64,000 nucleotides of DNA from an uncultured Rhodospirillales bacterium (lineage in GTDB: Bacteria; Pseudomonadota; Alphaproteobacteria; RF32; CAG-239): positions 54,535 through 118,534 of the forward strand of contig CACWQT010000004.1 in assembly GCA_902763185.1 (NCBI GenBank), read 5' to 3'. Positions 23,085 through 32,200 of this stretch are shown piece after piece; within the stretch, counting starts at the first letter, position 1; each line of letters starts with the position of its first letter. Below the pieces are notes generated by a model, which did no database searches, was not told the origin of the DNA, and saw nothing but the letters and a program-made list of their open reading frames with translations. Both the position numbers and the translations under genes were made by a program.

Positions 23085-24944
23085 ATGACTAAGACTTTTA
23101 ACATAACATCAGCGTTGATTTTGTTTGGATCGCTTTGGGCAACAAGCGTTTCGGCTCAGGTAACAAAAGATAACTTGGATCAAAACGCCGATCAGGCACA
23201 AGGAAACTATGCAACAACCAATTTGAACTATTTAGGTAGTGGCTCTTTGGGTATGATGCAAAGCGCTTGGAAAGATCCGTTGCAACATATGGGAGAGGGA
23301 CAAACCAAACCGGGATATACCAAATATTATTGGACGCCGGAATTAGTTTTGCCGGTTCGTTTACGTGAGGGAATGTATACACTTATTAATTTTCCGGAAT
23401 GGGAAGTGATAGAAAATGTATATTTAGGGGATGCTCAGTCTTTCAATGCGGAAATTCAAGGTCCGTCCAGTCTGATGGTTTATCCTGAAGCTTCACAGTT
23501 TGTTGGTGTGGATACCAATATGATTGTATTCGGCCGTTCTGGCAATAAATACGTGTTCTATGTCCAAAGTGAAACTGTAAACACAGATCGCATCACTAAT
23601 GCAATTATTGATATTGAAGTGGTGAAAAAACAAGGCGCTACATGGGCAACAGGTGGTAATGGTAGTGGTTCTGGCGGTTCCGGCTTCTTAAATAACGATG
23701 GACAGGGGGCGAGTGCTGGCGTGGATTCTACCTATACCAGAAATTTACAAAAAGAAGATTGGATAGAAAAAATACCGATTGATCCGACAAAGTTTCGTTT
23801 TGATATAGAAGTATATGTCCCTAATCCGGATGATATTATCATAGCACCGGAGCGTGTTTGGAGAGATAATATCTTTACATATATAGATTTGGGTGAAAAA
23901 GCATTAACAGCAATCCAACGTCCGATTGTAACGATGATTGTTGAACGTTCGGAAACACCGGTCGGTTTTCGTGCTGCAGGACCAAATAATCGGTTGATTG
24001 TTGTAGAAGGAATGGGCGATATGGTGTTAAGAAGCGGTAAAAGAATTGTTTGCCTCAAGCTTCGCCGTGCCGATTCGGATGGTTTAGAAAATGCTGTTTA
24101 TGCCAAAACAAATGAATGGGATTTGCAGAATTCTTATGCTTCGCAACCGCAGAATGGTGCAAATGCTTCAAATGGTGTATTTCCCTATGAAGATGTTTAT
24201 AATGACAATTCAAAACCTCAAAATGAAAATGGGGATAGTAGTTTCTTCAATAATTTGTTCACCTCAGGGGCACCTGCGGCAACAGAAGAAAGAAACAATA
24301 ATCTAAAAACCAATACTAATACTAATAACGCTTTGAGCAATATTGATACATTGCCCAAAGTTACGCCGGTAGTAATAGAAAATTCAGCAAAAACTACGCC
24401 TGCGGTAACCGGACAGGTTGAGGTAAAGACTGGGACATCAGAAGTCGTTGTTCCGGACTATAATAATCAGCCGGTAACAGTAAATGCAACACAAGTAGTT
24501 TCTGAAACACAAAAAGCTGGCACAAAGACAGGGAAAGAAAATGTTGGCAAATCGAGCAACAACTCTAATCCGGTAGTTATTACACCTAAAGAGGATTTAT
24601 CCAAGAAAAACAGTTTAATATCCCCGGAAACAGAAGCTTTGTTGCAAGAGTTCCGCAGTGGAAAGGGATTTAGTAATACCGATGAAACCAATATTACCAT
24701 AGAATTGGGCGAAGATGAAAATGTCAATAATTTGGAAAAACTTTGGCAAGGAATATCCAAACAATATTCTGCTACTTTAGGCCAATATCAGCCATTCTAT
24801 TCGGTAGATGCTCCGGCTGATGGTCGCGGTAAAGATATTTTCCATTTACGCGTTGGGCCGGTGAAGTCATTGGAAGACGGAGATAAAGTCTGCACGCAAC
24901 TGACACTTAATGGTATTATTTGTAGGGTTATAAGAACAGAATGA
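23085..24944 (+). CDS. virB9: VirB9/TrbG/CagX-family protein with long linker and C-terminal SPOR domain
   Basis: 619 aa with signal peptide ...ATSVSA-QV. The VirB9 N-domain pattern is YTKYYWTPELVLPVRLREGMYTLINFPEWEVIENVYLGDAQSFNAEI...TNMIVFGRSGNKYVFYVQSE. The VirB9 C-domain pattern is FRFDIEVYVPN...APERVWRDNIFTYIDLGEK...RPIVTMIVERSETPVGFRAAGPNNRLIVVEGMGDMVLRSGKRIVCLKL. A ~190-aa N/T/S/P-rich linker follows, then the SPOR pattern LWQGISKQYSATLGQYQPFYSV...GKDIFHLRVGPVKSLEDGDKVCTQLTLNGIICRVI. Confidence 0.8.
   Translation: MTKTFNITSALILFGSLWATSVSAQVTKDNLDQNADQAQGNYATTNLNYLGSGSLGMMQSAWKDPLQHMGEGQTKPGYTKYYWTPELVLPVRLREGMYTLINFPEWEVIENVYLGDAQSFNAEIQGPSSLMVYPEASQFVGVDTNMIVFGRSGNKYVFYVQSETVNTDRITNAIIDIEVVKKQGATWATGGNGSGSGGSGFLNNDGQGASAGVDSTYTRNLQKEDWIEKIPIDPTKFRFDIEVYVPNPDDIIIAPERVWRDNIFTYIDLGEKALTAIQRPIVTMIVERSETPVGFRAAGPNNRLIVVEGMGDMVLRSGKRIVCLKLRRADSDGLENAVYAKTNEWDLQNSYASQPQNGANASNGVFPYEDVYNDNSKPQNENGDSSFFNNLFTSGAPAATEERNNNLKTNTNTNNALSNIDTLPKVTPVVIENSAKTTPAVTGQVEVKTGTSEVVVPDYNNQPVTVNATQVVSETQKAGTKTGKENVGKSSNNSNPVVITPKEDLSKKNSLISPETEALLQEFRSGKGFSNTDETNITIELGEDENVNNLEKLWQGISKQYSATLGQYQPFYSVDAPADGRGKDIFHLRVGPVKSLEDGDKVCTQLTLNGIICRVIRTE

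Positions 24945-32200: not shown

Follow-up and report, generated by a model that had tools for sequence, protein, structure and literature searches.

The window analysed here is a 64,000-nucleotide (nt) stretch of contig CACWQT010000004.1 from an uncultured Rhodospirillales bacterium. It contains a VirB-type type IV secretion system (T4SS) locus, in which two large open reading frames (ORFs) lie on the forward strand between virB9 and virB11. The first, at 24941-32200, encodes 2,419 amino acids (aa) and is uninterrupted, compared with about 201 in-frame stop codons in a mononucleotide shuffle of the same 7.26 kb. The second, at 32202-36452, encodes 1,416 aa. Based on ORF and Pfam analyses, synteny, profile alignments (hhalign) and a tree of TrbI domains, these ORFs probably encode the two halves of one giant VirB10, and we refer to them as the N-half and the C-half. 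The ATG of the N-half shares the sequence ATGA (24941-24944, forward strand) with the TGA stop codon of the 619-aa virB9. The C-half starts with GTG at 32202, 1 nt past the TAG stop codon of the N-half, and GGAGG is located ahead of this start at 32190-32194. An original prediction made from the DNA alone had described an intact 2,419-aa ORF at this position, its ATGA coupling to virB9, and a VirB10 start 1 nt after its stop and preceded by a Shine-Dalgarno sequence; all of this can be read directly in the sequence. An exact-sequence look-up of the 2,419-aa protein returned no record.

The N-half begins with a short cytoplasmic tail (aa 1-15, ..TRFEEYEKKTRK) and a single transmembrane (TM) helix (aa 16-38), together encoded at 24941-25054. 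A Kyte-Doolittle (KD) hydropathy scan placed the sole hydrophobic TM segment at aa 18-36, and AlphaFold2 (AF2) predicted a helix at aa 5-38. These are followed by an acidic linker (aa 39-82; 25055-25186), which is disordered in the AF2 model (predicted local distance difference test score, pLDDT, below 50 at aa 47-80), and by a beta-rich module containing C139, C150 and a VQNN..W motif (aa 83-195; 25187-25525). The membrane anchor of one TM helix, the acidic linker and the Cys-containing beta-rich module had all been predicted earlier, and the models bear them out. AF2 places the beta module at aa 84-194 with pLDDT values of 70-85. Foldseek gave 6fvi as the best match of the module model, a weak one (E 3.8e-4, TMt 0.54), and the module weakly resembles immunoglobulin (Ig)-like sandwiches of the PapD/ASH/MSP type. 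Pfam and PDB sequence searches with the Ig-like module were without a match. Residues C139, C150 and W156 and the VQNN motif are invariant throughout the family. In addition, some giant proteins of up to 2,800 aa (P0250-P0261, P0271, P0278, P0281 and P0283) match the profile in its module portion alone; these matches are internal, and each protein has several of them. The Ig-like module may thus be a repeat unit in unrelated giant proteins.

From aa 224 to aa 2405 (25610-32155) the N-half consists of a hairpin array, delimited by Pfam matches, motif counts and AF2. We counted about 126 hairpins of 17-18 aa (17.3 aa per unit), corresponding to about 21 blocks of 104 aa, close to the hundred or so units of 17-20 aa estimated previously. 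The array contains 104 strict G-x-x-h-[GA] motifs, compared with 22.8 +/- 4.4 in shuffles, and these are spaced by 17 aa in 40 cases and by 18 aa in 20 cases. Autocorrelation of the protein peaks at lags of 52, 17 and 104 aa, reaching 0.34 at lag 52. Together with periods of 156 and 312 nt detected by Tandem Repeats Finder (TRF), this agrees with the 52-aa super-repeats noted in the original prediction. Within the window, the repeat motif occurs in the N-half and VirB10 ORFs and in no other ORF, so that the sharing of the repeat with the adjacent VirB10, also noted there, holds as well. The array region (26000-32000) has a GC skew of 0.36-0.44, compared with about 0.15-0.2 in neighbouring genes on the same strand, presumably as a result of its Gly/Asp/Asn-rich codon content.

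According to TRF, the only near-identical tandem repeat at the DNA level is located at 26342-26943, with 3.9 copies of period 156 nt (79%) and a period of 312 nt (93%). Repeats beyond this 600-bp stretch have diverged in DNA, and a collapse or expansion during assembly is therefore unlikely. BLAST colinearity and autocorrelation identify a lineage-specific expansion of 52-aa (18+17+17) super-repeats at approximately aa 460-1700 (26318-30040), which is not present in orthologues of about 1,100 aa. Compared with a 1,146-aa orthologue, the window protein has about 1,270 aa more of regular 18+17+17 super-repeats in its central part. A recent duplication between the arrays of the N-half and the C-half was considered and rejected. 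Similarity between the two arrays is 22-27% and uniform at all offsets, and their kinship is therefore at the level of the repeat family only.

Contrary to the original prediction, which could not place the repeat in any named family, the N-half matches three Pfam families far above their thresholds. These are Bflower_2 (PF21785; E 2.2e-177, 578.7 bits versus a cutoff of 38, in 26 stretches), Bflower (PF21784; E 8.8e-112, 368.3 bits versus a cutoff of 25) and DUF3659 (PF12396; E 4e-75). One 104-aa block alone passes the gathering thresholds of all three, with 54.4 bits versus 38 for Bflower_2. The beta-flower fold was found in AlphaFold models by Durairaj et al. in 2023, and the Pfam families were created for this fold (PMC10584680). 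Each beta-flower is a shallow barrel in which 8, 10 or 12 short strands are arranged with 4-, 5- or 6-fold symmetry and the hairpin petals bear [DNEQ]xxG at their tips; their function is unknown, and none has a solved structure (PMC10584680). The N-half contains 196 [DNEQ]xxG motifs, and its [DN]xxG positions correspond to the tip motif by which beta-flowers are defined (PMC10584680). A regular-expression (regex) search of the 2,419 aa for Ca-binding motifs of the EF-hand or RTX type found no DxDxDG and one GGxGxD, and Ca binding thus lacks support from motifs.

The AF2 models are consistent with this family assignment and with the beta-hairpin pattern proposed earlier. DSSP assigned short antiparallel strands of 3-6 residues, one per 8-9 residues. 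For aa 1304-1669, AF2 predicted an all-beta structure of short hairpins (mean pLDDT 75, predicted TM-score (pTM) 0.37), in which confident blocks of about 100 aa are connected by low-confidence joints. The alignment for this model was built from shifted repeats of the window protein, mostly overlapping windows aligned to themselves, and confidence in the model is moderate. Length steps of about 104 aa, equivalent to 12 strands, would fit six-petal units, with a pTM of only 0.37 for the model. The original prediction had envisaged an extended rod far longer than the periplasm. Given the weak joints between blocks and the threefold range of orthologue lengths described below, a fixed-length strut is disfavoured. 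Taken with the length steps of 52/104 aa and the threefold length range, the predicted structure fits a flexible string of small modules, approximately 21 in the N-half and 9 in the C-half, and not a rigid rod.

Pfam recognised no TrbI domain in the N-half ORF. Because this domain sits on the adjacent ORF, the N-half is a fragment of VirB10 and not a VirB10 by itself. The C-half comprises a signal-peptide-like segment (aa 1-28, ending in ..SVYA before AD), a beta-flower array up to about aa 1005 (Pfam Bflower_2 4.2e-50) and TrbI at aa 1117-1315 (Pfam PF03743; 6.1e-27). In 120 of 120 C-half orthologues, the N terminus has a basic n-region, an h-region of 12-16 residues and AxA, followed by a conserved mature end, (A/Q)(D/E)(I/M)(S/T)A.(D/N)FNGDL(I/L)GKVIPDG. 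Judged by eye and by hydropathy, these features would fit cleavage of the signal peptide. Cut off from the N-terminal anchor, an exported periplasmic C-half would indeed need a signal peptide.

The C terminus of the N-half always reads ..EVA(K/Q)NRRN, and a comparison of junctions indicated a second role for the nucleotides that encode it. The two Arg codons, CGGAGG at 32189-32194 in the window (forward strand), are CGGAGG in 83 of 96 junctions (loci L001-L107), in a genome of 38% GC and with six codons available for Arg. The flanking Asn codons (AA(C/T)), the stop codon and the spacer base vary around it. As CGGAGG is kept while its neighbours vary, the tail of the N-half houses the Shine-Dalgarno sequence of the C-half. 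Part of the conservation of ..NRRN in the protein is thus an RNA-level constraint, and the arrangement argues for a coupled and roughly equimolar synthesis of the two halves. We also considered a prfB-like +1 frameshift giving a fused product, which is unlikely given that the Shine-Dalgarno sequence abuts the last sense codon. The freely varying stop codon and spacer base disfavour it further, and read-through would put a hydrophobic signal sequence within a periplasmic chain. Both ends of the N-half and its frame of 1,000-3,000 codons are conserved in every species examined.

A homology search with the C-terminal 419 aa of the N-half yielded few matches, as the word index saturates on repeats. 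The 17 matches included fusions to RcpC and the protein P0151, a remote homologue of the N terminus, which led to contig SAAU01000002.1 (L110). Here, a single 2,420-aa ORF (10001-17263) is located between VirB9 and VirB11. Its product has a tail, TM helix, linker and Cys module as in the N-half, beta-flower repeats (Bflower_2 4.5e-81) and TrbI at aa 2094-2287 (7.9e-32), and its one hydrophobic segment is N-terminal. The N terminus of the window protein aligns with it over 190 colinear columns, from the tail to VQNN..W (hhalign 98.9%, E 2.5e-17), and N-half and C-half orthologues are colinear with the two ends of the L110 protein. The tail and TM helix of the N-half align with those of unsplit VirB10s (hhalign 98.9%), and the tail motif ..EEYxKK[TS][RN] is common to both. 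An exhaustive HMMER search of 1.84 billion cluster representatives identified 16 more 50%-identity clusters, of 1,498-2,406 aa, that combine the N-terminal module and TrbI in one chain with one N-terminal TM segment each. The unsplit lineages thus total 17, with ORFs of 1,498-2,420 aa, and belong to more distant Alphaproteobacteria. Genomic context was inspected for two of the 16 clusters. In L114, the gene order is VirB8, a 61-aa gene, VirB8, VirB9, the unsplit ORF and VirB11. The unsplit ORF of P0175 is downstream of VirB8 and VirB9, on a contig that ends just past the ORF.

We placed split and unsplit forms in a neighbour-joining tree of TrbI domains (302 columns, 31 sequences), with the VirB10s of Agrobacterium tumefaciens and Paracaedimonas as outgroups. 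Split forms constituted one clan in 300 of 300 bootstraps, and unsplit forms constituted a clan on their own in none of the 300. All beta-flower VirB10s grouped apart from the two outgroup VirB10s in 287 of 300. Given that canonical VirB10 is a single chain and that the split clan is nested among unsplit forms, parsimony argues for a gain of the array followed by one split at the base of the gut clade. We conclude, with a probability of roughly 0.75-0.8, that the ORF at 24941-32200 encodes the N-terminal half of a giant VirB10 that is split in two genes. Its tail and single inner-membrane helix are homologous to the N termini of TrbI-bearing proteins, and the gene is positioned between virB9 and virB11 in a VirB-type locus. 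The original prediction was correct in linking the protein functionally to VirB9 and VirB10, as synteny and the unsplit TrbI-bearing homologues indicate. It had, however, taken the ORF for an extra gene inserted between virB9 and virB10, which does not agree with unsplit homologues holding the N-terminal module and TrbI in one polypeptide. Its suggestion of a VirB10 duplication with loss of TrbI is likewise at odds with these homologues and with the tree, where all split forms fall into one derived clade.

A profile of the N-terminal 200 aa matches at least 154 species genomes. The carriers are uncultured Alphaproteobacteria, known from metagenome-assembled genomes of animal and human gut and filed as "Alphaproteobacteria bacterium", "Acetobacter sp.", "Azospirillum sp.", "Rickettsiales bacterium" or "Ca. 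Scatocola". The order virB8, virB7-like gene, virB8, virB9, N-half, virB10 and virB11 was observed in 27 of 27 loci with VirB9 and in 76 of 76 loci, and also in distant relatives. The N-half starts 0-19 nt past virB9 in all 76 loci, and TrbI is found 3.2-5.3 kb beyond the N-half stop codon where the contig continues. Complete N-halves range from 1,037 to 3,151 aa, and their lengths change stepwise, by about 52 or 104 aa. Relative to 2,093 aa, a length that occurs six times and across species, members of the long clade differ by -2, 0, +2, +3.1, +4.1, +6, +6.3 (window), +8.1 and +20.3 units of 52 aa. Shorter N-half orthologues, of 1,099-1,146 aa and with the same ends, occur in more distant relatives. 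A literature search, with subscription journals outside its coverage, turned up neither a split VirB10 nor any T4SS subunit with beta-flowers.

Several observations weigh against a split VirB10. The repeats can be aligned at so many offsets that the fission point is unmappable; BLAST with 300 or 700 terminal aa gives many of these, all equally good, at 24-33% identity. A Foldseek search with the array model gave no Tubby-like or other global match, and only local Rhs-like matches with TM-scores of at most 0.19. A threefold spread in length sits uneasily with any precise structural role, every carrier is an uncultured metagenome-assembled genome, and the physical association of the two halves is something that we purely infer. 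Moreover, the signal of the C-half might stay uncleaved and serve as an anchor, in which case this half could suffice as a VirB10 by itself, with the N-half as an accessory protein. The 2,419-aa protein would then be a separate inner-membrane partner descended from the N terminus of VirB10, and could position the machine as a spacer that binds peptidoglycan or the envelope. We regard such an independent subunit as unlikely. It would account for the hydrophobic N terminus of the C-half itself and for the weakly constrained length of the N-half, and it would suit the SPOR-like, peptidoglycan-binding stretch on VirB9 of this locus and the "cell wall-binding protein" annotations that some beta-flower proteins carry in public databases (PMC10584680). 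However, the C-half has a short h-region of about 12-16 aa, after which come the conserved AxA and mature N terminus, an arrangement that fits cleavage. Unsplit forms have no internal hydrophobic segment, and the ancestral anchor is therefore the one now on the N-half, where the conserved cytoplasmic tail also remained. A surface-exposed or secreted repeat protein, for example an adhesin, an antigenically variable fibre or a T4SS substrate with a basic C-terminal signal, is more improbable still. The analogue would be the CagY repeats on the surface of Helicobacter pylori. Block-wise gain and loss of repeats and the near-identical tandem duplication do resemble the arrays of CagY and DotG (PMC6761968), the ..NRRN terminus is basic, and carriers inhabit animal guts. 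But the N-in TM anchor without a cleavable signal peptide would leave the protein periplasmic and tethered to the inner membrane, the conservation of RR is accounted for by the embedded Shine-Dalgarno sequence, and unsplit homologues have this region inside VirB10, flanked by the TM helix and the TrbI barrel.

The local Rhs-like matches raise the question of an RHS/YD-repeat protein, that is, a closed beta-cocoon encapsulating cargo. Pfam RHS_repeat scores 122.8 bits on the N-half (cutoff 22) and 38.4 bits on a single 104-aa block, the Rhs protein 7q97 is the only PDB sequence match (3e-6), and Rhs effectors lead the Foldseek list through local similarity (8uy4, E 4e-17). Yet Bflower_2, with 578.7 bits, far exceeds RHS_repeat. 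TM-scores to Rhs and Tc shells are 0.09-0.13 with a root-mean-square deviation (rmsd) above 26 A, values that do not describe a closed cocoon. Neither the Rhs core motif PxxxxDPxGL (regex on the N-half) nor a toxin domain (Pfam) was found, VgrG or Tc context is absent, and an array that ranges from about 800 to 2,900 aa in steps of 52/104 aa is incompatible with one closed shell. The cocoon is thus very improbable: the petals resemble YD hairpins locally, and the protein is not an Rhs cocoon. The earlier statement that the repeat is not RHS/YD stands with respect to cocoon fold, core motif and toxin domain, but not at the level of sequence profiles, given the RHS_repeat score and the match to 7q97. 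We attach next to no weight to an artefact, either a nonsense or frameshift error or a mis-assembly of repeats in a single VirB10 gene. Repeats do pose problems for assembly, and the copies at 26342-26943 are 79-93% identical in DNA. Nevertheless, the arrangement of stop codon, 1-nt spacer and start codon with Shine-Dalgarno sequence and signal peptide is repeated at 96 junctions in assemblies that are independent of each other, different species share identical lengths (2,093 aa six times), and the remaining array has diverged at the DNA level.

For the split VirB10, we propose the following model. As the unsplit homologues of 1,498-2,420 aa indicate, the periplasmic linker of an ancestral VirB10 was replaced or expanded by a beta-flower array, and the gene was then split in the gut clade. 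The N-half retained the tail, the inner-membrane helix, the Ig-like module and most of the array. The C-half acquired a putative Sec-type signal peptide and retained further repeats and the TrbI barrel. Both would be translated from one mRNA, with initiation of the C-half coupled through the Shine-Dalgarno sequence in the last codons of the N-half. The N terminus of the N-half would remain cytoplasmic with its bulk in the periplasm, and the C-half would be exported by Sec, bringing both arrays into the periplasm. In canonical systems the VirB10 N terminus contacts cytoplasmic ATPases, and the tail of the N-half presumably does so here. The TrbI barrel of the C-half would join the outer-membrane core of VirB7 and VirB9, which is tetradecameric in canonical systems (PMC3093366). 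The halves would re-associate non-covalently, probably array to array, thereby rebuilding the bridge from inner to outer membrane. The array itself would be a flexible or space-filling periplasmic scaffold, with blocks of about 52 or 104 aa gained and lost, and not a fixed-length ruler; peptidoglycan binding is possible. Our confidence in the reassembly mechanism is modest. That the energy-sensing inner-membrane half and the outer-membrane pore half of a naturally split VirB10 are held together only by the non-covalent packing of two beta-flower arrays, at about 3,800 aa per protomer pair, is a tentative proposal that we doubt somewhat more than we believe. If it is true and the stoichiometry is tetradecameric, a multi-megadalton periplasmic lattice would surround the T4SS. 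It would also provide a first functional setting for the beta-flower fold, as a modular periplasmic building block also used by RcpC of the Tad pilus, and covalent continuity of VirB10 would be dispensable for coupling two membranes.

Upstream of the N-half, all on the forward strand, the locus encodes two VirB8 paralogues at 21156-21950 (Pfam VirB8 5e-10) and 22303-23067 (1.1e-16). Between them, at 22081-22281, is a 66-aa lipoprotein, assigned as VirB7-like by position and its lipobox (LAAC) only; Pfam found no match for it, and relatives have a gene of 60-62 aa in this position. VirB9 (23085-24944) contains CagX at aa 79-324 (Pfam 1.5e-14) and is extended at its C terminus, where aa 541-610 form a SPOR-like stretch (0.005). 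With 619 aa it is about twice the canonical size, and the SPOR-like (peptidoglycan-binding) stretch reaches 2.6e-6 in the L110 orthologue. Downstream of the C-half is the VirB11 ATPase (36512-37492, forward strand; Pfam T2SSE 3.2e-26).

Further upstream, within the T4SS locus, a 1,989-aa ORF at 15202-21171 encodes an acidic, Cys-rich protein with a signal-peptide-like start, in which neither a TM helix nor a Pfam family was recognised. Relatives have a large ORF (at least 1,308-1,417 aa) in the same position before virB8. Five ORFs of 324, 161, 644, 247 and 447 aa (9653-15184) lie between virB4 and the 1,989-aa ORF. Pfam gave no significant family for any of them, with a sub-threshold Erf4 match on the 447-aa ORF only, and three have a strongly hydrophobic N terminus. 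Three tandem VirB2/TrbC-like pilin paralogues (5464-5796, TrbC 1.7e-9; 6054-6383; 6395-6757) are followed by a VirB3-like ORF (6839-7129) directly before virB4. Pfam recognised no VirB5, VirB6/TrbL or VirD4 domain in the window. Immediately upstream of the T4SS (1264-5195), the opposite strand carries divergently transcribed genes for a secretin (Pfam Secretin 6.7e-15) and a TcpQ-like protein (1e-16), together with a 446-aa ORF that has no match; these may belong to a second envelope machine. The genes dnaA, dnaN and recF are at 42322-46251 on the reverse strand, and the T4SS locus thus lies about 5 kb (from the end of VirB11 to recF) from the presumed chromosomal origin region. With dnaA-dnaN-recF and further housekeeping genes as its neighbours, the locus belongs to the chromosomal core and is not a mobile element.

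To our knowledge, no T4SS subunit other than VirB10 crosses the inner and the outer membrane as a single chain, and VirB10 presumably relays ATP-dependent conformational signals to the outer-membrane pore. A clade of at least 154 species genomes that cuts this chain and keeps both halves under selection therefore amounts to a natural experiment on covalent continuity. The carriers are widespread uncultured gut Alphaproteobacteria, among which this chromosomal T4SS beside dnaA is conserved. The pair resembles canonical VirB10/TrbI proteins, such as A. tumefaciens VirB10 and pKM101 TraF, in its position between virB9 and virB11, in the short N-terminal tail with a single inner-membrane helix, and in the C-terminal TrbI barrel, which is here on the partner ORF and about 25% identical to TrbI of A. 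tumefaciens VirB10. In canonical VirB10, by contrast, a Pro-rich periplasmic linker is part of a single chain that measures about 380-400 aa and is encoded by a gene of 1,212 nt in A. tumefaciens. The window pair comprises 3,835 aa in two polypeptides, with about 180 beta-hairpins in place of the linker, an Ig-like module, and a signal peptide on the C-half. In the rvh cluster of Rickettsiales, a small virB7 is located between two virB8 copies, as in the window order at 21156-23067, and RvhB10 is of ordinary size and unsplit. The rvh T4SS and the present one share the duplicated virB8 and a chromosomal, vertically inherited locus (PMC2653234). They differ in that VirB10 is giant and split here, and in that neither VirB6/TrbL nor VirD4 was recognised in the window.

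Among beta-flower proteins (PF21784/PF21785, clan CL0395; PMC10584680), the similarity lies in profile scores above gathering thresholds, in the [DNEQ]xxG tips and in the short antiparallel strands predicted by AF2. The beta-flowers described so far are small, each a single domain of 8-12 strands, often in lipoproteins and sometimes enclosing a C-terminal helix. The window protein, in contrast, has an uninterrupted array of about 2,180 aa within a T4SS subunit, which may close into discrete flowers. RcpC/CpaB proteins with a beta-flower tail, found in Tad pilus loci (P0150/P0152/P0153), are likewise inner-membrane-anchored periplasmic subunits of a trans-envelope machine. In one example (L109:3258-5348, and also in P0152 and P0153), about 400 aa of beta-flower repeats follow the RcpC domain, next to secretin, CpaF and TadB/C genes. 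Unlike the pair described here, they belong to another machine, have only these 400 aa or so of repeats and are not split. Taken together, these cases would point to a general periplasmic scaffolding or spacing role of beta-flower repeats, and they give the fold a testable context in periplasmic parts of trans-envelope machines, VirB10 here and RcpC/CpaB elsewhere.

In function, the nearest analogues are two repeat-enlarged VirB10s, CagY and DotG. CagY of H. pylori is a VirB10 homologue enlarged several-fold by internal repeats, as is the present protein. Its repeats are of another sequence type and not [DN]xxG beta-hairpins, it is a single polypeptide of about 1,900 aa, and we know of no fission of CagY. 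DotG/IcmE of Legionella and Coxiella shares the TrbI C terminus, the N-terminal membrane anchor and a variable tandem-repeat middle. CagY repeat arrays expand and contract by recombination, and DotG ranges from 1,000 to more than 1,500 aa between species (PMC6761968). DotG differs in having pentapeptide repeats in one polypeptide and in belonging to a type IVB secretion system (T4BSS), whereas the locus here is VirB-type with a duplicated VirB8. As a third, independent case of a repeat-expanded VirB10 beside CagY and DotG, the protein suggests a general pressure on this part of the machine. Already known are thus the beta-flower repeat family and the repeat-enlarged VirB10s CagY and DotG; new in comparison with CagY and DotG are the beta-flower repeat type, the larger size of the 3,835-aa pair, the Ig-like module and the distribution over two polypeptides.

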